Shown in pieces: positions 242 to 17,318 of a stretch of 32,339 nucleotides of DNA. The translations under genes and the position numbers were made by a program. Numbering within the stretch: the first letter of the stretch is position 1; each line of letters opens with the position of its first letter. Source of the DNA: a virus (Duplodnaviria > Heunggongvirae > Uroviricota > Caudoviricetes). The stretch covers positions 1 through 32,339 of IMG/VR virus record IMGVR_UViG_2526164646_000008. The stretch is one strand, 5' to 3'. A model generated the notes under the pieces. That model was not told the DNA's origin and did no database searches. It was given only the letters and a program-made list of their open reading frames with translations.

Positions 242-828
242 TTACTCAGATGTAACCTCAGTTGTTGTTTCAGGGCATACCCCAGCTGTTTCGGCATTTC
301 CGCAGCAATGATGCGGTCGCGGGCATCTTCAAATGCCTGTGTCAGCGGTCCGGACAGCGGGATTTTCACTACCTCCACAGGAAGACGATTTTTTCTTAGC
401 CTGCCCTGATGGTCATGCCCTGTTGCAAAACGCGCTTCAGGAAGACACCTCAGAACATGCCAGCGGCCATTCGCCAGTTGCTGAACAAATGCCCCCCGGA
501 AAAAGTATTTTCCCACTCTCAGTCCTTCACCAGCACGCCGCCGTGTTGTGTTCAGTTTGATGGCGGGCAGATTGCCCCGGTTAACGCGGATCCTGGCCGT
601 CATTTTTCCTGACGGACTGGCTTTAAACACCCGGACACGCTGACGTACCAGTTTCAGGGGGATCCCTTTCACCTGGTTATCGCCCGCAACGGTATTCCCG
701 GCAACCTGCCGGGTGGCAACCGAGACCGCTTTCTGTGCCACACGGTTTATCGCCCATGCGCTGGCCTGTGGCACCATACGGGTATCAAGGCTGTTCAGAT
801 TGCGGATGGCATTCTCAAGCCCCTTCAT
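238..828 (-). CDS. Phage minor tail protein, lambda gpZ-like
   Basis: 196-aa track ORF (MKGLENAIRNLNSLDTRMVPQASAWAINRVA...), length and sequence resemble lambda Z; sits between FII-like and U-like genes. Confidence 0.65.
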   Translation of the reverse strand: MKGLENAIRNLNSLDTRMVPQASAWAINRVAQKAVSVATRQVAGNTVAGDNQVKGIPLKLVRQRVRVFKASPSGKMTARIRVNRGNLPAIKLNTTRRRAGEGLRVGKYFFRGAFVQQLANGRWHVLRCLPEARFATGHDHQGRLRKNRLPVEVVKIPLSGPLTQAFEDARDRIIAAEMPKQLGYALKQQLRLHLSK

Positions 829-1186
829 AATATCGTCCTGCCCTTACGTTTCCCGGCAGCCCCTCACGCCGCAACCGGATATAACTACATCCGCCATCAT
901 CAGGGGTGATACGATCCACACAGAAAGACTCACGACCAATCATCAGCGAATCATTGCGACACAGCCGTAAAATATCTGCTGTTTTCACAAACAGGGATGG
1001 TAAAGAGTCTTCAATACGCACACCGCCGGCCACCAGAGAAATATTTTCAGGATCATCAAAAACCCCGGAAATCATGATCCCTTTTAGCCGGCCTGACGTA
1101 ATGACCGCTCTAATCCCCATATTGCGAATAATGGCCTTGTCTGCGAGATCAAGTGCAACATCAAACAGATTATCGAAATCAGCCAC
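815..1186 (-). CDS. Head-tail joining protein, lambda gpFII-like
   Basis: 123-aa ORF MADFDNLFD...VFDDPENIS...PSLFV...PDDGG closely resembles lambda FII as recalled. Confidence 0.65.
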   Translation of the reverse strand: MADFDNLFDVALDLADKAIIRNMGIRAVITSGRLKGIMISGVFDDPENISLVAGGVRIEDSLPSLFVKTADILRLCRNDSLMIGRESFCVDRITPDDGGCSYIRLRREGLPGNVRAGRYYEGA

Positions 1187-1197
1187 GCTGCCTCCCG

Positions 1198-1599
1198 TTA
1201 TTGCATTCTGGCCAGGCCACGTTCTGTCATTCCGGCTGCCACACCGGCAAAGACACGGAACGCCATTCCCGGCGGCACAAATGCCAGAGGTTCATCCCGC
1301 GTGGCATGAAGTGCATCGGTATGCAGCGTCACCAGTGCCACGACTGTAACCAGATCATCCATATTCTGAATCACGGTCTCCGGCTGCGCTGATATCACCT
1401 CATTTTCATGTCCGGTCAGCGCATTTTCCGGGTGGGCAGACTTATCCCGGATGTCAGTGTCATCCATATTGGCAAGTTCCTCCTCCAGCTCAGCCACACG
1501 CTGCGCAATATCTGCTGCGCTTCCCGAGATATCCGGCTCACGTCCCAGCGATGCTGCCAGTTCTCTCAGACGTTTCAGGTTATCGTCTTTCTTTGCCAT
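1198..1599 (-). CDS. DNA-packaging/head completion protein, lambda gpFI-like
   Basis: 133-aa acidic ORF immediately upstream of the FII-like gene, size and position as lambda FI. Confidence 0.55.
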   Translation of the reverse strand: MAKKDDNLKRLRELAASLGREPDISGSAADIAQRVAELEEELANMDDTDIRDKSAHPENALTGHENEVISAQPETVIQNMDDLVTVVALVTLHTDALHATRDEPLAFVPPGMAFRVFAGVAAGMTERGLARMQ

Positions 1600-1861
1600 A
1601 TCTGTTCCTGTCCGAATAAAAAACGGGAGCCCGCCGTTACTTTATTCGTACCCCTTATAATGGGGTGTTAGCCAGCCAGACCCGGCATGATTACTGCCCC
1701 CAGTCGTCCATGATCCGGGGGGGATGTCACCGGGTCTGGTGGGGCGCTGGTAACCGCTAATAGGGGTCAGGTCAGGCACTTTTGCCGGGACCGTCTGTAA
1801 CGTGGATGCCGGTACCTGCTCCCCGTGGTTATCTGGTTAACCCATATACAAGGGAGACAGA

Positions 1862-3057
1862 ATGACCGAATCCAGCGATTACGAATCCGTCCAGGTCTTT
1901 ATCGGCGTTGATGTCGGTAAAGATACGCATCACGCTGTTGCCATTAATCGTTCAGGTAAACGCCTGTTCGATAAAGCATTACCCAACGACGAAAACAAAC
2001 TCAGGTCGCTAATATCTGACCTGAAACAACATGGTCAGATACTGCTGGTTGTTGATCAGCCAGCTACCATCGGTGCGTTACCTGTCGCCGTTGCCCGCTC
2101 AGAAGGAGTCCTTGTCGGATACCTCCCTGGACTGGCCATGCGCCGCATAGCCGACTTACACGCCGGTGAAGCTAAAACTGATGCTCGTGACGCTGCCATC
2201 ATTGCCGAAGCTGCCCGTACCTGCCTCACGCGCTACGCACGCTGAAACTGGCTGACGAGCAAATCGCCGAACTCTCCATGCTCTGCGGCTTCGATGATGA
2301 TCTTGCCGCACAGACAACGCAGGCCAGCAACCGTATCCGCGGCCTTCTGACCCAGATACATCCGGCACCGGAGCGCGTTCTCGGTCCGAGACTTGAGCAC
2401 CCGGCGGTACTCGATCTTCTCCAGCGATATCCCTCACCAGAAAAACTCGCTTCGCTGGGTGAGAAGAAGCTGGCAGCCCAGCTCTGCAAACTTGCGCCTC
2501 GTCTGGGTAAACGCCTTGCAGCAGACATAGCTCAGGCACTGGCCGACAAACCGTCGTCGTTCCCGGCACGAATGCCGCTGCCGTAGTACTGCCACGTCTG
2601 GCACTCCAGCTCATCACGCTGCGTAAGCAAAGAGACGAGGTGGCGCTTGAGGTAGAACAGCGAGTTCTTGCTCACCCTCTTTACCCGGTCCTGACCAGTA
2701 TGCCCGGAGTCGGTGTCAGGACCGCAGCCAGACTCCTCACCCGAGGTCGCCTGCCGCGCCTTCGCCTCTGCCGCACATCTCGCTGCTTATGCTGGCCTTG
2801 CGCCGGTAACTCGGCGATCCGGCTCGTCAATACGCGGTGAGCATCCCTCGCGACGGGGTAATAAAGCTCTCAAACGGGCGTTGTTCCTGTCGGCCTTCGC
2901 CGCGCTCAGGGATCCGCTCTCCAGGGCTTACTACACCCGCAAAATGAGTCAGGGAAAACGACACAATCAGGCGCTTATCGCCCTGGCGAGACGACGCTGC
3001 GACGTTCTGTTCGCCATGATGCGCGACGGGACTTTTTATACCCCGCAGGGGTCATAA
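1862..3057 (+). pseudogene. IS110-family (DEDD-type) transposase, broken into >=4 frames by frameshifts and an in-frame stop
   Basis: Track ORFs 1862..2245, 2278..2586, 2640..2840, 2713..3057 together read as one IS110-like transposase (VFIGVDVGKDTHH N-terminus; SMPGVGVRTAARLL motif) in different frames; element ends not determinable. Confidence 0.6.
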
Positions 3058-3252
3058 CATGCTTGACAACTTAATAGGGGCCCCCCCCGACAGACCTGTG
3101 CTATCGGAAAGAAAAAAGGCCATCAGCAAAACTCTGATGACCTGAATCACCTTTACCAATATTGTATGAAAAAACACGCACGACTAATTGACAATAATTT
3201 TCATTTCCATTAAAAAAGATCGCGTAGCATTCTTAATTCATGAGGAACTTTA

Positions 3253-3317
3253 CCCGCCAGCAATCTGAGTAGCGAAAGCTGTTCATCCCCAATGTTTTTG
3301 CTGGCGGGTCCTTTTTT
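3253..3317 (+). terminator. Inverted repeat cccgccagcaa / ttgctggcggg followed by T-run; possible terminator or IS110-element subterminal structure
   Basis: 11-nt perfect inverted arms 3253..3263 and 3298..3308 then tccttttttc; loop is long (34 nt). Confidence 0.3.
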
Positions 3318-3756
3318 CTACGGTCCTCCTCCCCGGAGGGGGGCATTTCATTATTTTTCTAATCGTTACTGGTGAGAAGGCGGAAGAAAAAGCCAGTTCT
3401 TCGCCCCTAAATAACAGCATGATTCCAGTCCATGCAAAATCTGATTTCCAGCTCACACATACCGAGCGCTGTACAAAAAACCGCCAGCCAAGGCAGTTAA
3501 GAGTGTGTTCCCGGGGTTTGCTTAGAATATTTTGTAAGTTGTCCGAAGAGATATTTACAACACCAGAATGATGAATCATCAGTCCCCTGCCAGAGGTTCA
3601 CTACGTAACCTGACCGACAATGCACCATTCTGGTGCTGAAAAAAGAGCACTGGAACTGCAACAAAACAACATCACAGAACAGGAGATGGTAAGGAGTCAG
3701 ACATTCCCACACAATATTGTGTCAGTGCAAATAACAACCTTCGTCTCAAATCTCGC

Positions 3757-3831
<75 letters not shown>

Positions 3832-3834
3832 ATA

Positions 3835-3910
<76 letters not shown>

Positions 3911-3912
3911 GC

Positions 3913-3989
3913 TGGCCCACCACCGAGGACTCGAACCTCGGACCGTCAACTTAGAAGGTTGATGCTCTATCCGGATGAGCTAGTGGTGG
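3913..3989 (-). tRNA. tRNA-Arg (anticodon UCU), unusual C1:G72 acceptor pair
   Basis: Reverse complement CCACCACTAGCTCATCCGGATAGAGCATCAACCTTCTAAGTTGACGGTCCGAGGTTCGAGTCCTCGGTGGTGGGCCA; anticodon loop CTTCTAA; 1 nt from next tRNA. Confidence 0.65.
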
Positions 3990-3990
3990 T

Positions 3991-4066
3991 TGGTGGCCCT
4001 TGCTGGACTTGAACCAGCGACCTGGCGATTATGAGTCGCTCGCTCTCACCACTGAGCTAAAGGGCC
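3991..4066 (-). tRNA. tRNA with CAU anticodon, Ile2 (lysidine)-type, ileX/ileZ-like
   Basis: Reverse complement GGCCCTTTAGCTCAGTGGTGAGAGCGAGCGACTCATAATCGC...GGTTCAAGTCCAGCAAGGGCCACCA, near-identical architecture to E. coli ileX as recalled. Confidence 0.7.
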
Positions 4067-4158
4067 GGAGGCAGAATAATAACCATATGTCATCACATCT
4101 GCAAACTCATCTGACCACCAGCACGTTTAACGTCCTGTGCCATTTTTCAGGCATAAAA

Positions 4159-4186
4159 AACCGCTCGGCGGCGGGTTTTGCTTACT
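4159..4186 (-). terminator. Weak GC hairpin plus T6 on minus strand between Q-like gene and tRNA cluster (tR'-like position)
   Basis: Minus strand reads AAAACCCGCCGCCGAGCGGTTTTTT; stem only about 4 bp. Confidence 0.3.
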
Positions 4187-4241
4187 TTACCATCGCGTAC
4201 AAAATCGGCAAAGTATCAGATTTGCATGAGATATATGCCTT

Positions 4242-4937
4242 TTAATCTACTTTTGCAATACTTTGCTTTGAAAATGCCGCTTTTTGTTCTGAACGTGTTC
4301 TCATCACAAACAATAAAGCCTCACTATCCAGTCGGTGAAAAATGTGTTTCATTACAACCCAGTGACCAGTAAATGTTTTGGACCAGTTTTTGGTTGTTAC
4401 TCCCGCCAGTAATGCCAGCTCCTGATATTCATAACCTTCCCCACCAAAAAGTTCTGCTTTTACCGCCTGCGCCGCCAGCCAGATTAATTTTTTCAGGCGT
4501 TCCTGTGTTTTCTCTGCAATTTTCCTAGTGCCAGAATGAGCCTTAAACTCTTCCCACGCCCAGTGGGTTATGGTGATCTGATACTCCCAGCAAATACTTC
4601 CGCTGTAACACCACAACAACCAGGCTTTATAGTGCTCTTCAAGAGACAGAACAGCCCGCCGCCACGATGATGTCGAAAACGCAACCTGACTGACCAGAGG
4701 AATTGACGCCCCCTTCGCCAGTGATTGTTTTCCCGGGATTGGTGGATTATCCCGCGTTATCATTTTTCCGGTCACCTCATCGCGGTACCGGATTTTTTTA
4801 CGCCTGTAACGCCCTGTATCGAACATGGCATTCTCCTGCCAGGCTTCAAGCTGACCTTTTGTCGCCCCACTCAAATCAGCGGTGGCGATAATGAGCTGCT
4901 CACGAACAAACTGTAAATACTGGTTATTCATGCACAC
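4242..4937 (-). CDS. Putative late-gene antiterminator (Q-like, 231 aa)
   Basis: Position immediately downstream of rusA and upstream of the phage tRNA cluster, as Q in lambdoid phages; 10-nt overlap with rusA; assignment is by synteny, sequence not recognised with certainty. Confidence 0.45.
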   Translation of the reverse strand: MCMNNQYLQFVREQLIIATADLSGATKGQLEAWQENAMFDTGRYRRKKIRYRDEVTGKMITRDNPPIPGKQSLAKGASIPLVSQVAFSTSSWRRAVLSLEEHYKAWLLWCYSGSICWEYQITITHWAWEEFKAHSGTRKIAEKTQERLKKLIWLAAQAVKAELFGGEGYEYQELALLAGVTTKNWSKTFTGHWVVMKHIFHRLDSEALLFVMRTRSEQKAAFSKQSIAKVD

Positions 4938-5287
4938 TCCAGCTCTGTGATTTTTATCCCCAACCGACCACCAGGAACAGGCAGTCCGCGCACAATATTG
5001 GTTTCATCAAACTGCTCGTCGTCGATAAGCAACCCCGCATGTGTCAGTGCATCCAGTGGTGCTTTCAGGATATTGTCCAGGTCACGACGCCGCTTATCCG
5101 GTGGCTCTGCAATAATCTTTATCGCCAGTCTTCCGGACAGGCTTAATTTCAGTCGCTGCTGACGGACAATAAGCGCCACATCCCGGCGATAACGCTCACC
5201 GGCTTTTGATACAAAATATGTGCTGCCACGACGTCGCCAGTAAGTATTCACCGTCGGCGGATAAGGTAAAATAAACTCATGGCGCAT
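4928..5287 (-). CDS. rusA: Holliday-junction resolvase RusA
   Basis: 119-aa ORF with RusA hallmark ...PDKRRRDLDNILKAPLDALTHAGLLIDDEQ...GGRL..I.I.E. Confidence 0.7.
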   Translation of the reverse strand: MRHEFILPYPPTVNTYWRRRGSTYFVSKAGERYRRDVALIVRQQRLKLSLSGRLAIKIIAEPPDKRRRDLDNILKAPLDALTHAGLLIDDEQFDETNIVRGLPVPGGRLGIKITELECA

Positions 5288-5426
5288 CAGCGCAGCACCT
5301 CCTGCACCAGCTTTTCAAACTTTCCGACTCTGGTTTCCAGCTCTGCCACACAGTCCACCAGCTCATCTACTGCTTTCTGTGCGCGATGCTTCGCCTGCAT
5401 CAGTTCCCGAAGCGCGGGTACCATAT
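5287..5426 (-). pseudogene. 3' fragment of a phage gene truncated at its 5' side by IS600 (native part ...MVPALRELMQAKHRAQKAVDELVDCVAELETRVGKFEKLVQEVLR)
   Basis: Track ORF 5287..5475 starts inside the IS600 end ([16 protein letters not shown] is IS-derived, same 16 aa as ORF 18533); TGATG stop/start overlap with rusA. Confidence 0.5.
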
Positions 5427-5490
5427 TGAGGTAGCCTGAGTTTAACGGACACTCCTTCCTGAAATAGAATGGCATCAGAAGGAGCTAATA

Positions 5491-5778
5491 ATGAGCAGAA
5501 AAACCCAACGTTACTCTAAATAGTTCAAAGCCGAAGCTGTCAGAACGGTTCTTGAAAATCAACTTTCGATCAGTGAAGGCGCTTCCCGATTATCCCTTCC
5601 TGAAGGCACTTTAGGACAATGGGTTACCGCCGCCAGAAAAGGGCTCGGTACTCCTGGTTCCCGCACGGTGGCTGAACTGGAATCTGAAATTCTGCAACTG
5701 CGTAAGGCGTTAAATGAAGCTCGCCTTGAGCGCGATATATTAAAAAAGCAACAGCGTATTTTGCACAGGAGTCGCTGA
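5491..5778 (+). pseudogene. IS600 orfA with premature stop at codon 11
   Basis: TAG at 5521..5523 (tactctaaaTAGttcaaagcc) where copy 2 has GAG (YSKEFKAEA). Confidence 0.75.
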
Positions 5779-5827
5779 AAAATACGCGTTAATCGAACAA
5801 TGGCGACAACAATTTCCCATTGAAGCG

Positions 5828-6646
5828 ATGTGTCAGGTATTTGGTGTATCCAGGAGCGGTTATTACAACTGGGTACAGCATGAACCCTCAGACAGAAAAC
5901 AAAGTGATGAGCGGCTAAAACTGGAGATTAAGGTGGCACATATCCGCACTCGCGAAACATATGGAACCCGGCGGCTCCAGACGGAGCTGGCAGAGAATGG
6001 CATCATCGTTGGTCGTGACCGACTGGCACGTCTTCGTAAGGAGCTGAGGCTACGCTGTAAGCAGAAACGCAAGTTCAGAGCGACTACGAACCCGAACCAC
6101 AATCTGCCAGTTGCGCCAAATCTGCTGAACCAGACGTTCGCTCCTACAGCACCAAATCAGGTCTGGGTGGCGGACCTGACGTATGTTGCCACACAGGAGG
6201 GATGGTTGTACCTCGCTGGCATCAAAGATGTTTATACGTGTGAAATTGTCGGCTACGCCATGGGAGAGCGCATGACAAAAGAGCTGACAGGTAAAGCCCT
6301 GTTTATGGCGCTCAGGAGCCAGCGCCCACCTGCCGGGCTAATCCACCACTCTGATCGAGGTTCACAGTACTGCGCATACGATTACCGGGTCATACAGGAG
6401 CAGTCTGGTCTGAAAACATCAATGTCGCGTAAAGGTAACTGTTACGACAACGCTCCGATGGAAAGCTTCTGGGGAACGCTGAAAAATGAGAGCCTGAGCC
6501 ACTATCGTTTTAATAACCGGGATGAAGCCATCTCAGTAATACGGGAATACATTGAGATTTTCTACAATCGTCAGCGTCGTCACTCTCGTCTGGGGAATAT
6601 CTCCCCGGCAGCCTTCAGGGAAAAATATCATCAGATGGCTGCTTAA
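5828..6646 (+). CDS. IS600 orfB transposase (DDE)
   Basis: 272-aa track ORF, identical to copy 3 orfB and 1 aa different from copy 2 orfB. Confidence 0.85.
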   Translation: MCQVFGVSRSGYYNWVQHEPSDRKQSDERLKLEIKVAHIRTRETYGTRRLQTELAENGIIVGRDRLARLRKELRLRCKQKRKFRATTNPNHNLPVAPNLLNQTFAPTAPNQVWVADLTYVATQEGWLYLAGIKDVYTCEIVGYAMGERMTKELTGKALFMALRSQRPPAGLIHHSDRGSQYCAYDYRVIQEQSGLKTSMSRKGNCYDNAPMESFWGTLKNESLSHYRFNNRDEAISVIREYIEIFYNRQRRHSRLGNISPAAFREKYHQMAA

Positions 6647-6688
6647 AAAAGAACAAATGGTAGTGTCCGCTATTGCCAGTACACCTCA

Positions 6689-6898
6689 CAACGCCATCCT
6701 GACAAGCGTTTTATCTTCAACGGGAATGAGATATGGAAACGTGGAGAATCAACCACAGAGTATACCCGCGCACACCAGCGAACAATCAGACGACTGCGCA
6801 GACTCATCGCCAGGAAACAGTATACAGAAAAATGGTTCAGAAAATATGACACATGGAGCGCCGGATATTACGAACTGATGGCAACAAAACCATTCTGA
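6689..6898 (+). pseudogene. Orphan 3' gene fragment (69 codons, no start) reading out of the IS600 right end
   Basis: Open frame from 6689 to TGA 6896..6898: QRHPDKRFIFNGNEIWKRGESTTEYTRAHQRTIRRLRRLIARKQYTEKWFRKYDTWSAGYYELMATKPF; protein-like composition; absent from ORF track because it lacks a start. Confidence 0.4.
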
Positions 6899-6958
6899 CG
6901 TAAACGAAATTAACCATGACGCAATTAAATAAGGCAAGCCGAATACATCAGGAGGACC

Positions 6959-7147
6959 ATGAACATTTATTTCAGAATAGTTATATCACTGGCAATTATC
7001 GCATGTATTTACGGATTAATCGTTCCGGCCCTCATATCAATGAAGGATACGGTAGCAGTGATTTCTGGCTTTGCTCTGGCGTGTCTGACCCCGCCCTGCA
7101 TTTATGCCATTTATAAGGGTCTTTCTTTTTCTAAGGATAAAAGATGA
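6959..7147 (+). CDS. Small membrane protein (62 aa, two hydrophobic segments)
   Basis: Strong SD aggagga 6 nt upstream of ATG; stop overlaps start of next gene (ATGA). Confidence 0.55.
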   Translation: MNIYFRIVISLAIIACIYGLIVPALISMKDTVAVISGFALACLTPPCIYAIYKGLSFSKDKR

Positions 7148-7971
7148 AAAAAGTTATTCCTGCTTTAGCCCTTGTTCTGCTGACCACCGGACTTGTCGGT
7201 TGCGATCGCGTTGAGCCTGGTAATGTTGGCATCAAGGTAAACAAACTGGGCGACGATAAAGGCGTCGGAGAAGTGGTCGGTGTTGGGCGCTACTGGACGG
7301 GATGGAACACTGAGGTTTACATCTTCCCGACCTTCAAACAAATGAAGACCTACGATGAGCCATTCAGCTTCCAGATGAGTGACGGTACAACCATCGGCTA
7401 TCACATCGGCGTGGCCTACAAAGTTGATCCATCCAAAGTTACCACAGTCTTTCAGACCTACCGCAAAGGCGTGGACGACATTACCGACACCGACCTGCGC
7501 CAGAAGATAGCCGACGCACTCAACCGACTGGCCAGCAAAATGACCACCGACAAATTTATCGACGGCGGCAAGTCTGAGCTGCTGGATGCAGCTCTTAAAG
7601 ACATTCAGGAAGAAATGACGCCCATCGGTATTCAGGTAATGAGCCTCTCATATGTGGGTAAGCCGGAGTACCCGCCTACTGTTATCGACAGCATTAATGC
7701 CAAAGTCACGGCGAACCAGAAAACCCTGCAATGCGAGCAGGAAGTAAAACAGCGCGAAGCGGAAGCCAACATGTTGCGCGCGGAAGCTGCCGGACAGGCA
7801 GATGCGATTCGCACAAAAGCCCAGGCCGAAGCCGATGCTATTCGTTTACGCGGTGAAGCTCTGCGCCAGAACCCAAACGTTATGGAGCTGGAAGCCATCA
7901 ACAAGTGGAACGGTACACTGCCGCAATACATGACCAGCGGTGCCAACACACCATTTATTCAGGTTAAGTAA
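7144..7971 (+). CDS. Lipoprotein, probable SPFH/band-7 (prohibitin-like) family
   Basis: Signal peptide with lipobox LVGC; C-terminal Ala/Glu-rich coiled coil (AEANMLRAEAAGQADAIRTKAQAEADAIRLRGEA) typical of HflK/C-like proteins; family call from pattern only. Confidence 0.45.
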   Translation: MKKVIPALALVLLTTGLVGCDRVEPGNVGIKVNKLGDDKGVGEVVGVGRYWTGWNTEVYIFPTFKQMKTYDEPFSFQMSDGTTIGYHIGVAYKVDPSKVTTVFQTYRKGVDDITDTDLRQKIADALNRLASKMTTDKFIDGGKSELLDAALKDIQEEMTPIGIQVMSLSYVGKPEYPPTVIDSINAKVTANQKTLQCEQEVKQREAEANMLRAEAAGQADAIRTKAQAEADAIRLRGEALRQNPNVMELEAINKWNGTLPQYMTSGANTPFIQVK

Positions 7972-7978
7972 TACATAT

Positions 7979-7999
7979 GCCCGGTATTACACGCCGGGC
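7979..7999 (+). other. Hairpin gcccgg-N9-ccgggc between SPFH gene and ORF6N gene
   Basis: 6-bp GC stem seen directly; no U-tract, so probably not a strong terminator. Confidence 0.3.
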
Positions 8000-8014
8000 T
8001 GTCTGGAGATAAAA

Positions 8015-8764
8015 ATGAATACTGTAACCATCAACAACAAACAGTTTCCGGTAATCGAATATCGCGGTCAGCGTGTTGTGACGCTGGCGATGATTGATGA
8101 AGTCCACCAGCGACCGGAAGGAACCGCGCGTGCAGCATTCAACCGAAACCGTGAGCATTTCATCAGCGGTGTGGATTATGCCGAATTAGGTGCGGACGTA
8201 ATACGTACGGACCTCCCGGAAGGAACATTCTCTAAATTTGCACCATCGGGGATTGTACTTTTTGAATCAGGTTACCTGATGTTGACGAAGCCATTCAATG
8301 ACGCCCTTGCCTGGCAGGTTCAGCGCGAACTGGTTAACAGCTACTTCCGCACTCGCACACCGCTAACGGAAATCGAGATGATCGCTGCGATAGCCGCCGA
8401 CGCTGTTCGTCAACAGAAGCGCCTGAATCATGTGGAAGAACAGCTCGAAACAGTCACAGAAGCGGTGGAAACCATCAAACGCGGAAATATGCGCGCCGGA
8501 TATGTCGGTTACCGCCAGGTGGTAGCCAAAAGTGGAATGAGTGACACCAAGTGTCGGAATCTGGTGAACGCATATCAAATTCCTACAGACACCCACGAAT
8601 TCATGACTCCGGACGGTCTGTTGTCTCGCAGGGCTATCGTCGAGCTTGAGCCATTTATGGCGGCGTTCCACCAAATGATGTCAGAGGCTGACCCACGCGG
8701 CACACGCTGGTATCACCCGAAGATGGGGCTTTTCCAGGTGATCGGATGGGAGGATAAAGCATGA
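8015..8764 (+). CDS. ORF6N-domain (antirepressor-like) protein, 250 aa
   Basis: N-terminus NNKQFPVIEYRGQRVVT...NFNRNREHFISGVDY matches the ORF6N pattern FP.IE..GQRV.T....NF..N..RF.EG; SD ggaga upstream of ATG 8015 (track start 7940 is an upstream extension). Confidence 0.5.
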   Translation: MNTVTINNKQFPVIEYRGQRVVTLAMIDEVHQRPEGTARAAFNRNREHFISGVDYAELGADVIRTDLPEGTFSKFAPSGIVLFESGYLMLTKPFNDALAWQVQRELVNSYFRTRTPLTEIEMIAAIAADAVRQQKRLNHVEEQLETVTEAVETIKRGNMRAGYVGYRQVVAKSGMSDTKCRNLVNAYQIPTDTHEFMTPDGLLSRRAIVELEPFMAAFHQMMSEADPRGTRWYHPKMGLFQVIGWEDKA

Positions 8765-9330
8765 TCATCCAGTCAAAACTTATTCGCGCCGCTCTGGTGT
8801 GCGCTGCTAAAAACGACGTTCGTTATTACCTGAACGGTCTTCACATCACGCCGAAACATATTGAGGCAACCAATGGTTCCGTGGCACTGCGCATGGCTCA
8901 CGGCATCCGGACGAAGAAAAACATCATTGTCCAGTTCGAAGGGGGCGTCCCGGCCAAAGCCGAAACGACAGAGCTGATTTTTAGTAAAGAGCCGATCGCT
9001 GTTCATCGCGACCAGTTTCAGCGACGACTGTCCATTACCGGCATTAAACTGGTGGACGGTTGTTTTCCGGATTTGGATCGCATCATTCCGAAAAAGTTTG
9101 ACCGCTGTACTCACCCGGTGCTCCAGGCGGGTTACCTGAGTTATCCAGAGAAGATGTTTGGTCGTGAGCGTAAATTTATTCCCGTCCAGTTACGTCCCTC
9201 CGGTGACGGGCAAGCGGTCAGAATTCAGTTTGATTCCATCATCAACTCAATGTATGGCAATCCTGAATTTGTTGTGATGCCTTGTCGTGATCATGGCGAT
9301 TTCAACGTGGCTCAGGAGCATCCGGAATGA
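8761..9330 (+). CDS. DnaN (DNA polymerase III beta sliding clamp)-like protein lacking domain I
   Basis: Motifs DVRYYLNG, KLVDGCFPDLDRIIPK and FVVMPCR in same order and spacing as E. coli DnaN domain II-III as recalled; ATGA overlap with upstream gene. Confidence 0.5.
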   Translation: MIIQSKLIRAALVCAAKNDVRYYLNGLHITPKHIEATNGSVALRMAHGIRTKKNIIVQFEGGVPAKAETTELIFSKEPIAVHRDQFQRRLSITGIKLVDGCFPDLDRIIPKKFDRCTHPVLQAGYLSYPEKMFGRERKFIPVQLRPSGDGQAVRIQFDSIINSMYGNPEFVVMPCRDHGDFNVAQEHPE

Positions 9331-9449
9331 AAATCGAATACCAGGACGCCGCAGGAGGTGAATCAATGAGCTGGCCTGATGCAATCGTAACTCTGGGGAT
9401 GGTATTCGCAGTAGCGTTTGTTGTGTACTCGATTTGTCGATGGGGATAA
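9327..9449 (+). CDS. Micro-ORF encoding hydrophobic peptide (40 aa from ATG 9327; 27 aa from internal ATG 9366)
   Basis: MKIEYQDAAGGES-MSWPDAIVTLGMVFAVAFVVYSICRWG; SD aggaggtg 6 nt before ATG 9366; ATGA overlap with clamp-like gene stop. Confidence 0.4.
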   Translation: MKIEYQDAAGGESMSWPDAIVTLGMVFAVAFVVYSICRWG

Positions 9450-9453
9450 CCAC

Positions 9454-9696
9454 ATGTTCGCTTTGATTCAACGCGGGCAGATATACACAGACAGAGCCGG
9501 ATACCCAGTAGAAATTACTCGCAGTACTGAGCACTCAGTGTTCTTTCGGAGGATGGACGGACGTACCGGGCGAGTACGCATCGGTGAATTCAGTAGCCTG
9601 GTCGAGCATATTGACCACCTGGAATATCACAAGATTCTGGCTGAAACAGAACAAGAAAAGCACCTGAAGAAATTACGCGCAATGCAAAGGAAGTAA
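9454..9696 (+). CDS. Hypothetical small phage protein (80 aa)
   Basis: MFALIQRGQIYTDRAGYPVEITRSTEH...; SD gggga upstream; track ORF 9418 is an N-terminal extension. Confidence 0.45.
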   Translation: MFALIQRGQIYTDRAGYPVEITRSTEHSVFFRRMDGRTGRVRIGEFSSLVEHIDHLEYHKILAETEQEKHLKKLRAMQRK

Positions 9697-9699
9697 AAA

Positions 9700-9846
9700 A
9701 TGAATAAAGCGTTTGAGCTATGGGTCCACCAGCGTTACGGCAACCACTACGACCTGACGCGAGATGTTGACGGTTTCTACTGTCGTGAAATTGTGAAACG
9801 AATGTTTGAGGACTGGTGCCACTGCCGTGGGCTGAGTGTTGTGTGA
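9700..9846 (+). CDS. Hypothetical small protein (48 aa, Cys-rich C-terminus)
   Basis: ATG 9700 preceded by aggaag; MNKAFELWVHQRYGNHYDLTRDVDGFYCREIVKRMFEDWCHCRGLSVV; below the ORF-track size cutoff. Confidence 0.35.
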   Translation: MNKAFELWVHQRYGNHYDLTRDVDGFYCREIVKRMFEDWCHCRGLSVV

Positions 9847-9854
9847 GGTAATGC

Positions 9855-10019
9855 ATGGGCAATGTGATTCAACTGGCTCCCAATGAATGGGTTTGTGAAA
9901 GCGTTCTAATCGCAATTACCGGGCTCAAACCAGGCACAATTCTTCGGACCCGGAAAGAATGCTGGATGGTTGGAAGAGAGTATATTCACGTATCACCAGA
10001 CGGTAATCCAAAGCCTTCT
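9855..10019 (+). pseudogene. Excisionase-like gene, 3' end removed by IS911
   Basis: MGNVIQLAPNEWVCESVLIAITGLKPGTILRTRKECWMVGREYIHVSPDGNPKPSE then IS911-derived codons; homologous to the xis-like ORF at 22577. Confidence 0.45.
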
Positions 10020-10026
10020 GAAGTGG

Positions 10027-11195
<1,169 letters not shown>

Positions 11196-11324
11196 TGGAG
11201 CACCTGTGTTGTTCTGAGGTGAGCATATCACCTCTGTTCAGGTGGCCAAATTCAGTGTGCCACTTCAAATCTTGCCAGAGCTAGTATTGCACTGTCTGGC
11301 ATACACAATCGTTCCAGTAATCAA

Positions 11325-11561
11325 TTAGCGAGGTTCGCAGTCTTCACTTTGGAACTTAAACTTTTCTATCTCCGTGAGTTTTGCTTTGAGCGCAGCCTCA
11401 TTGCTTTTAGAGATTGTCAGCTCATCAATGAGAGACAAATATTCAAGCTGAATGCTTGACAACTTAGAGTTTATTTCAGACACAGCGCGATCAACCTCAG
11501 CCTGAGTTTTTGCTTCATTGAATAATTTTAACATTGATGCAGTCTCTTTGAGAGCTGACAT
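11325..11561 (-). CDS. Hypothetical coiled-coil protein (78 aa)
   Basis: Track ORF with protein-like heptad composition; no recognisable family. Confidence 0.35.
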   Translation of the reverse strand: MSALKETASMLKLFNEAKTQAEVDRAVSEINSKLSSIQLEYLSLIDELTISKSNEAALKAKLTEIEKFKFQSEDCEPR

Positions 11562-11788
11562 CGCTAATACATCACTTGCTCACTCTTCTTATTGTTGGGG
11601 TATTCAGATTATACAAATTTCTTGTTGTTGGGGAATAACAGGAACCACCTCGCCTGACGTAGTTAAAAGCAGGCACACAACGCGAAATGACGCGGCGGTA
11701 AGTATGGCGGAGTTATTCCTTCCCCGTTGAGGACACCGGGTTGTCAGGTTGACCATACGCTTAAGTGACAACCACGCCACAACACTCC

Positions 11789-11847
11789 ATGTTGATTGGT
11801 ACCTTTGGCGGCATCAGTTTCATTGCTGGCTGATGTCCGCCCTTTTT
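11789..11847 (+). ncRNA. dicF: DicF-like small RNA candidate with intrinsic terminator
   Basis: ttgattggtacctttggcggcatcagttt... resembles the 5' half of E. coli DicF (UUUCUGGUGACGUUUGGCGGUAUCAGUUUU) as recalled; ends in hairpin ggcgg-c-atcag/ctgat-gt-ccgcc (11807..11841) plus T5. Confidence 0.4.
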
Positions 11848-12143
11848 AAAGTGAATTTTGTGATGCGGTGAATGCGGCTGAGCGCACGCGGAACAGTTAA
11901 AAAGCGATTAGTTCCCACGTATCGGGTGGTTATGGGTTTCCCTGTATCCGGCGTTAATTGTTAACTGGTTAACGTCACCTGGAGGCACCAGGCACCGCAT
12001 CAACAAAGTTCACTTCGGTGATGAAAGGTAAGAGAAAATGTTGAATGTAGCTATTGAAAACCAGAACGGGTGGAATTATAGTGCATCTGCACCTCATAAA
12101 ACGGGGGCCGGGCGTGGAAACCCGAACGTTACTCGAGCGCATA

Positions 12144-12165
12144 GCCGCGCTGAAGCGGTTTTTTT
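12144..12165 (+). terminator. Short GC hairpin (ccgc-gctgaa-gcgg) followed by T7
   Basis: Seen directly; 4-bp stem, strong U-tract. Confidence 0.3.
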
Positions 12166-12967
12166 ATGCGTAATGCACAGCTCCATTCAAATTATGGTGG
12201 GATGTGCAGGGCAGTCGCAAGACTGGCCGGGTTCTCGAGTGACCGGTATTTCCACCCCTGTACGTCTCACCACCCTTATGGTCGTGGAAAACCTCGGTGG
12301 TGAGTTAATTAACTTATCACTCGAGGATGCCATCATGGCTACTATCCCTGCCCTTTCTCACCCTGACGTAACCATCGAAAACGGTCGCGCTGTCACTACG
12401 TCTGTTGCGGTTGCAGAGTTCTTCCACAAACGACACGACAATGTGTTACGTGCCATCGCAAATACTGAATGCTCACCTGAATTTAACGCCCTCAATTTTG
12501 AGGACGTCACCTACACCGACACCAAAGGCGAAAAACGCCCAATGTACCAAATCACCAAAAACGGCTTCGTTTTCCTGGTGATGGGCTTCACTGGGAAAAA
12601 AGCCGCTGCATTCAAAGAGGCCTACATCGCTGATGTTCGACCGCATGGAGGCAGAACTGCACCAGAATAATACCCCGTCCGCTGACAAGATGATTCCGGG
12701 TAACGGTCGCACTCTGGTTGTGCACTTCGACGAACACGGCAATATCAGATTCACCGAAACTGTTCCTGACGGTGCACTGGTCTGTACCCTGGATACTTTC
12801 CAGTTTTATCTGGAAAAACAGGGGTGGGCTCTTGTAAACCGGAGCGCAATTAAAAATATGACCGTAGAGCAGCTGCTAGACTGGCCCCCTGAATCTCCAG
12901 ACAACCAGTATCACTTATTTAAGTGATAGTCTTAATACTAGTTTTTAGACTAGTCATTGGAGAACAG

Positions 12968-13333
12968 ATGATTGATGTCTTAGGGCCGGAGAAACGCAGA
13001 CGGCGTACCACACAGGAAAAGATCGCAATTGTTCAGCAGAGCTTTGAACCGGGGATGACGGTCTCCCTCGTTGCCCGGCAACATGGTGTAGCAGCCAGCC
13101 AGCTATTTCTCTGGCGTAAGCAATACCAGGAAGGAAGTCTTACTGCTGTGGCCGCCGGAGAACAGGTTGTTCCTGCCTCTGAACTTGCTGCCGCCATGAA
13201 GCAGATTAAAGAACTCCAGCGCCTGCTCGGCAAGAAAACGATGGAAAATGAACTCCTCAAAGAAGCCGTTGAATATGGACGGGCAAAAAAGTGGATAGCG
13301 CACGCGCCCTTATTGCCCGGGGATGGGGAGTAA
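12968..13333 (+). CDS. insC: IS2 orfA (InsC)
   Basis: [56 protein letters not shown]... Confidence 0.85.
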
Positions 13334-14196
13334 GCTTAGTCAGCCGTTGTCTCCGGGTGTCGCGTGCGCAGTTGCACGTCATTCTCAGACGAACCGATGA
13401 CTGGATGGATGGCCGCCGCAGTCGTCACACTGATGATACGGATGTGCTTCTCCGTATACACCATGTTATCGGAGAGCTGCCCACGTATGGTTATCGTCGG
13501 GTATGGGCGCTGCTTCGCAGACAGGCAGAACTTGATGGTATGCCTGCGATCAATGCCAAACGTGTTTACCGGCTCATGCGCCAGAATGCGCTGTTGCTTG
13601 AGCGAAAACCTGCTGTACCGCCATCGAAACGGGCACATACAGGCAGAGTGGCCGTGAAAGAAAGCAATCAGCGATGGTGCTCTGACGGGTTCGAGTTCTG
13701 CTGTGATAACGGAGAGAGACTGCGTGTCACGTTCGCGCTGGACTGCTGTGATCGTGAGGCACTGCACTGGGCGGTGACTACCGGCGGCTTCAACAGTGAA
13801 ACAGTACAGGACGTCATGCTGGGAGCAGTGGAACGCCGCTTCGGCAACGATCTTCCGTCGTCTCCAGTGGAGTGGCTGACGGATAATGGTTCATGCTACC
13901 GGGATAATGAAACACGCCAGTTCGCCCGGATGTTGGGACTTGAACCGAAGAACACGGCGGTGCGGAGTCCGGAGAGTAACGGAATAGCAGAGAGCTTCGT
14001 GAAAACGATAAAGCGTGACTACATCAGTATCATGCCCAAACCAGACGGGTTAACGGCAGCAAAGAACCTTGCAGAGGCGTTCGAGCATTATAACGAATGG
14101 CATCCGCATAGTGCGCTGGGTTATCGCTCGCCACGGGAATATCTGCGGCAGCGGGCTTGTAATGGGTTAAGTGATAACAGATGTCTGGAAATATAG
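13291..14196 (+). CDS. insD: IS2 orfB (InsD transposase)
   Basis: 301-aa track ORF. Confidence 0.85.
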
Positions 14197-14272
14197 GGGC
14201 AAATCCAGCTGCTAAGTATTAAATAACTTTCCTGAGATTTCCTTTGTAAGACTGTTTATTAAGGAGGCTTCC

Positions 14273-14494
14273 ATGATTGCTCATCACTTCGGAACTGATG
14301 AAATACCACGTCAGTGTGTGACTCCTGGCGATTATGTTCTTCATGAAGGTCGGACATATATCGCCTCGGCAAACAATATTAAAAAGCGAAAACTTTATAT
14401 TCGTAGCCTGACTACAAAAACATGCATTTCTGACTGCATGATTAAAGTCTTCCTCGGTCGTGATGGTTTACCTGTAAAGGCGGAGTCATGGTAA
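14273..14494 (+). CDS. kilR: KilR-like small protein (73 aa; Rac-type FtsZ-inhibiting killing protein)
   Basis: Strong SD aaggagg 5 nt upstream; 73 aa as KilR; sits in kilR-ydaE-racC-recE order as in Rac prophage; identity from recollection and synteny. Confidence 0.5.
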
Positions 14495-14664
14495 TGACTA
14501 AGAAAATAAAATGTGCTTATCACCTTTGCAATAAAGAAATTGAAGAAAGCAAAATCATTACAAGACCACTTCATTTCATGCGTGGAGTTATACCAACGAC
14601 GGAAATGAAAAAATATTGTAGTGAAATCTGTGCCGAAAAAGACCAGATGGCACACGAACTTTAA
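14488..14664 (+). CDS. ydaE: YdaE-like zinc-ribbon protein (58 aa, two CxxC pairs)
   Basis: [17 protein letters not shown]...[17 protein letters not shown]; start overlaps kilR-like stop; below ORF-track size cutoff. Confidence 0.45.
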
Positions 14665-15039
14665 TTAACTGACTATCCGAAACTGAATTTATGCCAGCAA
14701 TGGCAGGGATTCGCTCAACCTTAATTAAGGAGAAAAACATGATTACCAGTTATGAAGCCACTGTTGTAACTACTGATGACATTGTTCACGAGGTTAATCT
14801 GGAAGGAAAGCGTATTGGCTACGTGATTAAGACAGAAAATAAAGAAACCCCATTCACTGTGGTTGATATCGACGGTCCATCAGGCAACGTTAAAACACTT
14901 AACGATGGTGTAAAAAAAATGTGTCTGGTGCACATAGGAAAGAATCTGCCCGCAGAAAAAAAAGCCGAATTTCTGGCAACTCTGGGTAATGCTGCCAACT
15001 TACTGATTTAGTGTATGATGGTGATTTTAAGGTGCTTGC

Positions 15040-15315
15040 GTGGCTTCCATTTCCATCAGATGTCCTTCCTGCTCCGCTACTGAAGGCGTGGTGCGTAACG
15101 GCAAAAGCACTGCCGGACATCAGCGCTATCTCTGCTCTCATTGCCGTAAAACATGGCAACTACAGTTCACTTACACCGCCTCTCAGCCCGGTACGCACCA
15201 GAAAATCATTGATATGGCCATGAATGGCGTCGGATGTCGCGCCAGTGCACGCATTATGGGCGTTGGCCTCAACACGGTTTTACGTCACTTAAAAAACTCA
15301 GGCCGCAGTCGGTAA
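15040..15315 (+). CDS. insA: IS1 InsA
   Basis: 91-aa track [43 protein letters not shown]... Confidence 0.85.
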
Positions 15316-15737
15316 CCTCGCGCATACAACCGGGCAGTGATGTGATTGTCTGCGCTGAAATGGACGAACATTGGGGCTACGTCGGTGCTAAATCACGTCA
15401 GCGCTGGCTGTTTTACGCGTATGACAGGATACGGAGGACGGTTGTGGCGCACGTCTTCGGTGAACGCACTCTGGCCACACTGGAGCGTCTTCTGAGCCTG
15501 CTGTCGGCCTTTGAGGTCGTGGTATGGATGACGGATGGCTGTCCGCTGTATGAATCACGCCTGAAGGGAAAGCTGCACGTTATCAGCAAGCGTTACACTC
15601 AGCACATTGAGCGACATAATCTGAATCTGAGACAACATCTGGCAAGGCTGGGACGGAAGTCACTGTCGTTCTCAAAATCGGTGGAGCTGCATGACAAGGT
15701 CATCGGGCATTATCTGAACATAAAACACTATCAGTAA
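15234..15737 (+). CDS. insB: IS1 InsB (InsAB' transposase made by frameshift)
   Basis: 167-aa track ORF. Confidence 0.85.
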
Positions 15738-15789
15738 GTTGGAGTCATTACCCAACTCTGATTGCAATGAAATTAAAAGGTGAAATCTG

Positions 15790-15819
15790 AAAAAAAGAAA
15801 GCCTGCACACTGTGCAGGC
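15790..15819 (-). terminator. Perfect palindrome gcctgcacactgtgcaggc with U-tract only on the minus strand
   Basis: 19-nt palindrome 15801..15819 preceded on the plus strand by aaaaaaagaaa, i.e. followed by TTTCTTTTTTT on the minus strand. Confidence 0.35.
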
Positions 15820-15889
15820 CTGAATGAAGAACCTGGGACATTTATTCATCACTCGCAGTAATTTTAATCTGAGTTGAGGTTAAAAAACA

Positions 15890-17314
15890 ATGAACACCGA
15901 TAAACAAGTTTACCCACTGTATTACGAAGCAAAAAATGACAAAGTAAGAAAACGTCTCGGTATTAAAGGCGGTTTTTACTGGGCTGAAGCGAAAAAATTA
16001 TCCATTGCCATCTCCCGTGGTGCTGTTGCGATTGACGATGCAGGCTACGATGAAGATGACTTTAAAAAACCTGTTCGCGTCAATTTGCCCGTTGTTGATG
16101 ACCTCCCGCCAGAAGGCGTATTTGATACGGAATTCTGCAACCGTTACGAAAAAGGCGGGGAAGATGGCATCACAATGGTATTTATCGCATCTTCTCCCTC
16201 TGTTCAGGACAAACCGGCCAGCACTGACAATACCAACGTCAACGGCGAAGACATGACAGAAATTGAGGAGAACATGCTCCTGCCAGTTTCCGGTCAGGAA
16301 CTGCCCATTCGCTGGCTTGCGCAACACGGCAGCGAAAAACCAGTAACGCACGTTTCACGCGACGAACTCCAGGCATTACACATTGCTCGGGATGAAGAAC
16401 TACCAGCTGTTACTGCCCTGGCTGTTTCCCACAAAACCAGCCTGCTCGATCCGCTGGAAATTCGCGATCTCCACAAACTGGTGCGTGATACTGACAGAGT
16501 TTTCCCTAATCCAGGCAATTCAAGCCTGGGGCTGATGACTGCTTTTTTCGAAGCATACATGGACGCAGACTACACCGATCGCGGTCTGCTGACAAAAGAG
16601 TGGATGAAAGGAAATCGTGTTTCACGCATCACGCGCACGGCTTCCGGCGCTAATGCTGGCGGCGGGAACCTCACCGATCGCGGCGAAGGTTTCGTTCACG
16701 ATCTGACGTCACTGGCGCGCGACGTAGCCACTGGCGTACTGGCTCGTTCAATGGACGTGGACATTTATAACCTTCATCCGGCACACGCTAAACGTGTCGA
16801 GGAAATTATCGCTGAAAATAAACCGCCCTTTTCTGTTTTCCGCGACAAATTCATCACCATGCCTGGCGGGATGGATTATTCCCGCGCCATCGTGGTTGCG
16901 TCAGTGAAAGAAGCACCGATTGGTATCGAGGTCATCCCCGCTCACGTCACTGAATATCTGAACAAGGTACTGACTGAAACCGATCATGCCAACCCTGATC
17001 CGGAAATCGTGGATATTGCCTGCGGTCGCTCCTCTGCCCCGATGCCGCAACGTGTAACAGAAGAAGGAAAACAGGATGATGAAGAAAAAACGCAGCCATC
17101 TGGCGCAATGGCAGATGAACAGGCAACGGCTGAAACAATGGAACCGGATGCAACTGAACATCATCAGAACACGCAGCCGCTGGATGCTCAGTCACAGGTA
17201 AATTCTGTTGATGAGAAATATCAGGAACTACGGGCAGAACTCCATGAAGCCCGGAAAAACATTCCGCCCAAAAATCCTGTCGATGCAGACAAATTACTGG
17301 CTGCCTTGAGGTAG
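15890..17314 (+). pseudogene. recE: RecE (exonuclease VIII)-like gene, N-terminal non-catalytic region only; 3' end removed by IS600
   Basis: 474-aa ORF with acidic, low-complexity stretches ([19 protein letters not shown]...) recalled from Rac RecE; stop TAG 17312..17314 lies inside an IS600 end remnant; native sequence ends at 17306. Confidence 0.5.
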
Positions 17315-17318
17315 CCTG
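17307..17318 (+). repeat. 12-nt IS600 left-end remnant (tgaggtagcctg) abutting the right end of IS600 copy 2
   Basis: Identical to the first 12 nt of the IS600 left end at 5427..5438. Confidence 0.7.

Follow-up and report, generated by a model that had tools for sequence, protein, structure and literature searches.

The viral record IMGVR_UViG_2526164646_000008 of IMG/VR raises the question of whether a run of small, closely spaced genes in front of an excisionase gene forms a single functional system or a stretch of separately exchangeable phage genes. The window analysed here is the whole 32,339-nucleotide (nt) stretch of that record, and the block in question occupies positions 6959-10018, where eight open reading frames (ORFs) all lie on the plus strand, namely seven genes (g1 to g7) and xis (g8) (Table 1). 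An earlier note on this DNA, made from the sequence alone, had listed the same ORFs and proposed that they form one seven-gene operon, possibly an undescribed defence, superinfection-exclusion or host-takeover module. Our analysis indicates, with a probability of about 0.8, that the block is a fragment of the distal early-left region of a phiP27-like lambdoid prophage, clipped by insertion sequences (IS), and that its genes are exchanged independently, as a mosaic, and do not make up one system.

Mosaicism and distribution of the block

We found that the full block, over its entire length and at about 93% identity, is present in prophages of 51 of 5,426 complete Escherichia coli genomes (counted at a coverage of at least 80%), whereas its parts are commoner apart, with g1-g2 in 218 of these genomes, g6-g7 in 312 and g4-g5 in 60. 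When the eight products were compared by tblastn with 160 related loci, the full order was seen in 26, and in a further 12 with xis lying beyond the end of the fetched locus. About 47 loci showed the phiP27 pattern, in which g1-g2 are followed directly by g6-g7, with or without xis; about 14 had g1-g2 followed directly by xis; and about 55 had g4, with or without g3, in the absence of g1-g2. Breakpoints of homology fell on gene borders (7984, 8015, 8759, 9347, 9454 and 9700), the first being the point at which homology to phiP27-type phages ends, and nucleotide identity to one full-order relative varied by gene, being 99.5% for g1 and 85% for g3 and g6. Conservation of gene order, which the earlier note had put forward as a check, was thus borne out only in part, and a single undescribed module does not agree with parts that occur far more often apart than together and with breakpoints at gene borders. 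Within the block, only g1 and g2 act as a fixed pair. The block may be viewed as three parts: the g1 and g2 pair (A); the regulator g3 with the mini-clamp g4 (B); and the small regulatory or excision proteins g6, g7 and Xis (C).

The genes themselves are as the earlier note described them, packed in one direction with overlapping or near-abutting starts. ATGA overlaps are present at three junctions (g1/g2, g3/g4 and g4/g5), g2 and g3 are separated by 43 nt, and the remaining gaps are 4, 3 and 8 nt. Such tight co-directional packing is the norm for phage early operons. Ratios of nonsynonymous to synonymous substitution rates (dN/dS), calculated against the copy in E. coli STEC799, were 0.17 for g2, 0.19 for g3, 0.25 for g4, 0.09 for g6, 0.16 for g7 and 0.30 for g8; because all six values lie between 0.09 and 0.30, these are real genes. 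All ORFs from g1 to g7 are intact in the window despite the IS-cut ends. An Rfam search of 6600-10100 gave nothing at E<=0.1. Scans for promoters and terminators, which here and below are consensus matches only, found no sigma-70-like site in 6650-10060, against 4.0 expected in shuffled sequences, and no convincing plus-strand terminator within the block.

IS-made ends and native operon context

Neither end of the block is natural; both were produced by IS insertion. At the left, the segment 5425-6690 is 97.8% identical to an annotated IS3-family transposase locus and contains a transposase ORF at 5828-6646, and the adjoining translated sequence (6689-6898) aligns with the C-terminus of a 130-aa product (locus L001, 11548-11940) whose gene is intact in relatives, synteny being in agreement. 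At the right, the match to intact 78-codon xis genes stops at 10018, where the end sequence of IS911 begins; int is missing from the window, and relatives carry it at the position of IS911. A full-length Xis beside an integrase was not found in the window, xis being cut at 10018 and int absent. Hence the seven-gene operon of the earlier note can be retained as to its seven genes plus xis but not as a self-contained unit, since its ends were made by IS elements that cut both the 130-aa gene and xis. IS600 and IS911 would have clipped a fragment of a phiP27-like lambdoid operon out of its context.

That context is preserved in intact relatives. In E. coli STEC799 and RMDEC364, xis, int and then the attachment site at yecE (DUF72) come after the block, and RMDEC364 has a second copy in an mlrA prophage whose xis/int pair differs. 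RMDEC364 thus carries the whole early-left block twice (L002 at yecE, L172 at mlrA); its yecE copy has an IS3-family element directly before g1, near, but not at, the IS600 site of the window. The gene order of the mlrA prophage is XRE repressor, helix-turn-helix (HTH) gene, three small ORFs, ParE-like gene, 130-aa ORF, g1 to g7, xis and int, and the order repressor, HTH gene, small ORFs, g1 to g7, xis and int was found in L001, L002 and L172. Two genes before g1, the intact operons carry a gene for a ParE-family toxin-like protein, with no obvious antitoxin annotated (L001 11333-11551, L002 10066-10284 and L172 6528-6746); the window has lost this gene through the IS600 insertion. The same gene order before xis-int in intact relatives confirms the earlier description of the block as phage accessory genes that precede xis/int. 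By position, it belongs at the distal end of a repressor-proximal early-left (pL-type) operon of 14-16 genes that ends in xis-int, and is the counterpart of the lambda exo-xis region.

In L172, a strong terminator (4610-4626) and a TTGACA-17-TAATAT site (4662-4690; 10/12) are located just after the XRE repressor gene, and the first and second small ORFs each have a weaker plus-strand site (9/12) at their start (5580-5609 and 5982-6011, respectively). From 6011 through int, the consensus scan revealed no plus-strand promoter-like site. The absence of a promoter-like site of its own, together with the long repressor-proximal operon, argues against expression of g1 to g7 in the lysogen. A promoter just 3' of the repressor gene would read through the HTH gene, the small ORFs, the ParE-like gene, the 130-aa ORF, g1 to g7, xis and int, and from these scans and lambdoid precedent we infer that g1 to g7 are delayed-early genes, silent in the lysogen, whose products would be made upon infection or induction.

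The exo-xis region of lambda and Shiga toxin (Stx) phages (orf60a, orf61, orf63, ea22 and ea8.5) resembles the block in consisting of small, non-essential, co-directional early-left genes directly 5' of xis-int. The gene content, however, is wholly different, Pfam and PHROG searches of g1 to g7 having given no match to Ea22, Ea8.5 or the orf6x products, and prophages bearing the block lack exo, bet and gam genes upstream. In three reports, the lambda exo-xis genes are described as expressed early, as modulating the choice between lysis and lysogeny and as affecting lysogenisation and induction (PMC3824215, PMC4195576, PMC8614690). This literature concerns developmental regulation, and we found no evidence here for the classic defence hotspot that the earlier note had placed upstream of xis.

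The two-transmembrane protein and SPFH lipoprotein pair

The product of g2 matches Band_7 of Pfam at 6.3e-31 (108.2 bits against a gathering cutoff of 23.6) and phrog_200 at 6e-114, and that of g1, a predicted inner-membrane protein, matches phrog_1130 at 7e-24. The N-terminus of g2 is a lipoprotein signal peptide, MKKVIPALALVLLTTGLVG-C-D, which fits the lipobox pattern [LVI][ASTVI][GAS]C, and the C-D is invariant in four temperate-phage homologues. Asp at position +2 is the inner-membrane retention signal of enterobacterial lipoproteins. The g2 product is thus predicted to be a periplasm-facing lipoprotein kept in the inner membrane, in which the lipobox is followed by an SPFH domain, then by a coiled coil rich in Ala, Glu and Gln, and by a C-terminal motif that is conserved. 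At codon 199, the window copy has Cys, in KTLQCEQEV, where the four phage homologues have Arg (KTLQREQ or KTLQRQQ).

HflK is the closest solved relative of g2, at only E=3e-4, and scores against the NCBIfam equivalog models for HflK and HflC were 22-24 bits, below the cutoffs of 134-159. In its SPFH/Band-7 domain, coiled coil and predicted periplasmic location on the inner membrane, g2 resembles the HflK/HflC-FtsH system, QmcA and YqiK, but it differs from HflK/HflC in being phage-encoded, in having a lipid anchor instead of an N-terminal transmembrane (TM) helix and in its 62-aa partner with two TM helices. The SPFH-NfeD operons (YbbK/QmcA-YbbJ, YqiJ-YqiK and PH1511-PH1510) likewise couple an SPFH gene translationally to the gene of a small membrane protein; g1, however, has no Pfam match, no NfeD/OB-fold and no ClpP-like protease domain, just two TM helices. 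Of the likeness to stomatin/NfeD pairs suggested earlier, the conserved pair therefore stands, and the NfeD analogy was ruled out.

Relatives of g2 occur in at least 382 phage records. The temperate carriers include lambdoid phages (phiP27, Stx2 phages and Fraca), the P2-like P88, the P1-like RCS47 and the SSU5-like Cyrano, and the virulent carriers include N4-like phages, Bruynoghevirus, Vequintavirinae, Ounavirinae, BcepF1, phiCbK, crAss-like phages and Lak phages. Matches to the SPFH gene were also obtained in 364 plasmid records, the majority being non-mobilizable plasmids of about 95 kb and about 110 kb, sizes that fit the records of P1-like and SSU5-like phages. A small 2-TM protein bearing the sequence motif [VL]Px[LM][IV]S is encoded directly upstream of the SPFH gene in P88, Fraca and Cyrano, and a diverged 2-TM protein in the Burkholderia phage BcepF1; in KpS8 the 2-TM protein is one small ORF away, and in Pa222 and phiEa104 the SPFH gene has different small neighbours. 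Unannotated 2-TM ORFs homologous to g1, whose products share this motif, are located directly 5' of the SPFH gene in RCS47 (L162 3731-3967) and phiEaP8 (L170, about 1300-1500). In RCS47, the pair is flanked by upl/plp on one side and the tRNA/ban region on the other. Among four temperate lineages, identity is 79-92% for the mature SPFH protein and only 17-29% for its 2-TM partner, which suggests that the periplasmic SPFH domain may have a conserved host target.

In Cyrano, the pair has the layout of a moron: a hairpin terminator, a promoter-like TTGAAA-17-TATCAT site (10/12), g1-g2 and the same hairpin terminator again. The two near-identical terminators bracketing the pair (L164 2652-2671 and 3791-3810) read AGGCGTCC-4 nt loop-GGACGCCT, followed by a T-run. 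No promoter-like or terminator-like site of the pair's own was found in the window or its lambdoid relatives, so that the moron proposed by the earlier note is matched by the autonomous pair of Cyrano but not by the pair studied here.

By analogy with HflK/C, the SPFH protein might oligomerise into a cage on the periplasmic (outer) face of the inner membrane and act there on a conserved host envelope target during infection, through FtsH-type proteolysis or through membrane entry or integrity. In the literature on phage SPFH function we found no functional study of the pair; as late as 2026, a paper described what phage SPFH lipoproteins do as unclear. An HflK/C-like protein of a Pasteurella multocida prophage has been reported as a virulence factor. 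In phiP27 and Stx2 phages, the SPFH lipoprotein is labelled "serine protease", for which no domain evidence was seen here, and this misleading label has probably spread through databases.

The truncated beta clamp

The family profile of g4 matches E. coli DnaN at E=1.9e-16, and g4 itself scores 21 bits against TIGR00663 (cutoff 137.65). The AlphaFold2 (AF2) model of g4 has a predicted local distance difference test score (pLDDT) of 91.9, and in a Foldseek search with this model beta clamps were all of the listed matches (the best 50 of 54, E<=0.001). The protein aligns only with DnaN residues 136-256 and 316-365, that is, domain II and the second half of domain III, a placement based on the correspondence of the motifs RYYLNG, ATxGH, DGRFPDxxRV(I/L)P, IGFN..Y and VVMPxR. 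Domain I is lacking, and the first half of domain III, which contains I272/L273, appears to be deleted. Mutation of I272/L273 makes the beta clamp monomeric (PMC11139829). With domain I gone and half of domain III apparently deleted, the canonical dimeric ring is excluded for g4, and the 189-aa protein differs in this from the 366-aa DnaN, whose three-domain subunits join head to tail, while sharing with it a profile and fold kinship to domain II and part of domain III and a largely kept pocket. A placement in which g4 keeps the dimer interface I272/L273 was dropped, as the alignment of IGFN..Y and VVMPMR puts its C-terminal half on DnaN 316-365.

Eighteen residues lining the pocket for clamp-binding motifs (subsites I and II) have been listed (PMC11139829). 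We found 13 of these 18 to be identical to DnaN in the majority of the g4 family and 11 in the window copy, and seven of the nine invariant columns of the family are cleft residues or an immediate neighbour of one (beta R152, Y153, Y154, L155, T172, G174 and P242). H175 bridges the two pocket subsites of the beta clamp. The g4 product would dock host or phage proteins carrying clamp-binding motifs, either recruiting replication proteins to phage DNA or sequestering them.

The g4 family comprises at least 253 phage records and corresponds to phrog_3007, which in many siphophage genomes is often labelled "RusA-like Holliday junction resolvase"; this label lacks domain or fold support and has probably spread through databases. 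In the virulent siphophages Sortsne and C1, relatives of g4 lie among genes for primase/helicase, dUTPase, a ParB-like protein and methylase. The earlier note had reasoned that products with ordinary phage replication functions would speak against its module, and this surrounding of DNA-metabolism genes goes part of the way. No functional study was found in the literature on phage mini-clamps.

The probable ORF6N regulator

The head of g3 matches ORF6N of Pfam at 2e-12 (47.6 bits against a gathering cutoff of 27.8), and the protein matches phrog_1726 at 1e-69. In its relatives, Rha or Bro-N heads are joined to the same C-terminal domain, for which no Pfam family match was found. The AF2 model of g3 (pLDDT 41) was unusable, its alignment holding only relatives at least 81% identical. 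By its KilA-N-like ORF6N head, which is swapped for Rha or Bro-N in close relatives, g3 is probably a modular DNA-binding regulator of the Ant/Bro/Rha class; it differs from the known Ant, Bro, Rha and KilA-N regulators in a C-terminal domain that fits no Pfam family, and an anti-repressor role is putative.

At most g4 loci examined, the gene 5' of g4 encodes a modular regulator with a Rha, Bro-N or ORF6N head, and at a few it is a small unrelated ORF, one of them Lar-like. The tail HPxxGxF recurs in Rha-, Bro-N-, ORF6N- and even Lar-headed proteins upstream of g4; this shared tail could be a functional component of the g4 cassette, or it could simply mark a recombination joint. For example, locus L100 has an 84-aa ORF resembling Lar (restriction alleviation), ending at about 6000 upstream of the mini-clamp, with the tail HPxVGRFQI...EADA. 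The tail of g3 (KMGLF) was also considered as a clamp-binding motif that would dock into the pocket of g4, but this provides no more than a weak lead, position 4 of the supposed motif being L, G or R and two other types of upstream protein being without the tail.

Small genes preceding xis

Profile searches, which the earlier note had suggested for each product, assigned families to all but g5. This hydrophobic micro-ORF, which had no family match in Pfam, PADLOC, PHROGs or NCBIfam, has AGGAGG, a strong Shine-Dalgarno sequence, before the ATG at 9366, as well as the ATGA overlap with g4. It occurs in only four sequence variants with all changes conservative, too little variation for a coding test, and we regard it as a putative coding ORF.

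The g6 product belongs to DUF4222 (Pfam 1.6e-13, 50.4 bits against a cutoff of 27). The studied member of DUF4222, RgdR (ECs1581/ECs_1581), is encoded by a prophage of enterohaemorrhagic E. coli and regulates type III secretion and motility there; its RGD motif matters for type III secretion activation (PMC3378721). Over 27 residues, g6 and RgdR share 41% identity (E=0.009), with RGQ of g6 aligned opposite RGD of RgdR, so that the RGD motif, its Asp replaced by Gln, is absent from g6. Both proteins are small, basic and prophage-encoded, but g6 has 80 aa against 99 aa and occurs in another prophage type and position; g6 is a distant paralogue of RgdR. An alternative upstream TTG start (9418-9696) would give g6 92 aa, overlapping g5; RefSeq relatives start at the ATG equivalent to 9454.

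The g7 product matches phrog_3871 at 2e-33 and nearly always accompanies xis, the two genes being adjacent in most of the architectures surveyed, and g8 matches excisionase DUF1233 at 7e-23.

Alternative explanations

That the seven genes constitute one undescribed defence, superinfection-exclusion or host-takeover system with cooperating parts is very improbable. Its tight packing with three ATGA overlaps, the conservation of its order in the 51 genomes, with about 93% identity and with carriage by prophages inserted at two different sites, and the lack of PADLOC matches, by which it would be new, are what speak for it; the parts, however, are oftener apart, with breakpoints at gene borders, and have unrelated distributions, the SPFH pair occurring in virulent N4-like phages and Vequintavirinae and the mini-clamp in DNA-metabolism modules of virulent siphophages, and the operon of intact relatives extends at least five genes further upstream. 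That the SPFH pair is also found in many strictly virulent phages speaks against a role confined to prophage defence. No match in PADLOC-DB v2.0 at E<=0.1 was obtained for any of the eight products, in agreement with the earlier statement that no named defence or exclusion system fits; absence from a defence catalogue is no evidence for defence. Several points weigh against the clipped mosaic that we prefer. Some 50 E. coli genomes have inherited the full order stably, and it passes as one piece from prophage to prophage, so that neighbours may function together; translation of g3 and g4 is coupled, and the gene before g4 is nearly always of the Rha/Bro/ORF6N class. The single transcription unit is a prediction from consensus matches, and the functions proposed for g1-g2 and g4 are predictions from homology. 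At codon 40, the window g4 encodes Ser; in 32 of 35 members of the family this position, equivalent to beta H175, is His. Finally, the block in this genome is severed from its promoter and may be silent. Whether it is an inert relic, cut off from promoter and int and decaying, we consider evenly balanced: IS600 truncates the upstream gene and IS911 truncates xis, int is absent, the surrounding 32 kb are a patchwork of IS elements and prophage fragments with no promoter-like site at the block, and the window copy has unusual substitutions (Ser in g4 and Cys for Arg in g2), but none of the seven ORFs is broken, outward promoters may be provided by the IS ends, and E. coli alleles are 100% identical for g4-g5 and 99.2% for g6-g7. 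The Ser allele of g4 is itself found in several E. coli genomes at 100% nucleotide identity, and hence does not represent Shigella-specific decay.

Within the clipped mosaic, the functions of its parts may be considered separately. Superinfection exclusion by g1 and g2 alone, with a periplasmic SPFH cage beside the 2-TM protein shielding the route of DNA entry at the inner membrane, is unlikely. The pair is autonomous in the phage-plasmid Cyrano; in P1-like RCS47 it replaces the accessory tciABC genes that phage P1 carries at this locus; and the SPFH gene is found on the plasmid records of P1-like and SSU5-like size. Known exclusion proteins such as Cor, Llp and T4 Imm/Sp likewise act at the envelope, and since virulent phages also encode exclusion proteins, the presence of the pair in them is compatible with this role. 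Homology to known exclusion or defence proteins was not found in PADLOC or PHROGs, however, the pair of this prophage lineage lies inside a repressed early operon without its own promoter, and no experimental report came to light. Modulation by g1 and g2 of host FtsH/HflKC or of membrane protein quality control, tuning the lysis-lysogeny decision or envelope stability, may be about equally likely. It is favoured by the relationship to HflK and the weak HflC/HflK matches, by a topology predicted from the Asp+2 lipobox to be like that of HflK/C, by the very strong conservation of the mature domain across phage lineages and by the position in the early-left operon, for which lambda cIII, also encoded from pL, is a parallel; against it, the similarity to HflK is marginal (24 bits at best), and the pair also occurs in P1-like and N4-like phages and virulent myoviruses, which have no known cII-type decision. 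For g4, it is doubtful, if a little less so, that the protein is a replication inhibitor or decoy that soaks up proteins with clamp-binding motifs (Pol III alpha, delta, Hda and translesion polymerases) and halts host replication. Phage proteins that target the host clamp are known, and a kept cleft with domain I absent and half of domain III apparently deleted makes a DNA-encircling ring unlikely, but the primase/helicase, dUTPase and methylase neighbours in virulent siphophages fit a constructive role in phage DNA metabolism. That the block holds at least one undescribed device for host interaction, either a periplasmic cage of the SPFH pair for exclusion or FtsH-type reprogramming, or a ring-less clamp mimic that hijacks or silences the replisome, is somewhat more conceivable than any of these three roles and still only a tentative proposal.

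Surroundings of the block

Outside the block, IS elements (of the IS110 and IS3 families and IS1) are mixed with prophage fragments. The flank 1-5300 includes a split IS110-family transposase, and IS3-family and IS1 transposases lie among the debris of the flank 11300-17400. These flanks appear to bring together the remains of two or more different prophages, fused through IS-mediated rearrangement. A protein 100% identical to g3 of the window is present on a record from Shigella flexneri, and the source genome is an IS-riddled one of the Shigella flexneri type.

Table 1. Features of the block and its surroundings (window coordinates)
Feature	Position	Strand	Description
g1	6959-7147	+	62 aa; two hydrophobic helices; AGGAGG 5' of ATG
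g2	7144-7971	+	275 aa; SPFH/Band-7 lipoprotein; lipobox LVGC, Asp at +2; coiled coil; conserved C-terminal motif
GC-rich hairpin	7979-7999	+	g2-g3 gap, at a mosaic boundary; -14.4 kcal/mol, z -2.2; without U-tract
g3	8015-8764	+	249 aa; ORF6N head and C-terminal domain without family match
g4	8761-9330	+	189 aa; truncated beta-clamp paralogue
g5	9327-9449	+	hydrophobic micro-ORF; 40 aa, or 27 aa from ATG 9366
g6	9454-9696	+	80 aa; DUF4222
g7	9700-9846	+	48 aa; 3 Cys and 3 His; phrog_3871
g8 (xis)	9855-10018	+	excisionase DUF1233; 54 of 78 codons left, cut by IS911
IS600-type IS3-family element	5425-6690	+	artificial 5' boundary of block
3' remnant of preceding early-operon gene	6689-6898	+	last 69 of 130 codons; 5' part lost to IS600
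IS911-type element	10019-11270	-	artificial 3' boundary; transposase ORFs 10027-10866 and 10893-11231
Tail protein Z and FI	within 1-5300 flank	-	prophage debris
Q antiterminator and RusA	4242-5287	-	prophage debris
Fused Ash/Rha ORF	12038-12670		prophage debris
RecE/exonuclease VIII gene	15890-17314		prophage debris

Significance

The seven-gene "system" as such matters little, being a typical mosaic stretch of a lambdoid early operon for which dozens of RefSeq genomes already have annotations. Of value are two families in it that are abundant and uncharacterised, the 2-TM and SPFH pair and the mini-clamp. Solving either would correct the label under which it is now filed, the SPFH lipoprotein as "serine protease" and the mini-clamp as "RusA-like Holliday junction resolvase"; it would also improve the annotation of hundreds of phage genomes and could bring to light a new manipulation of the envelope or of the replisome.

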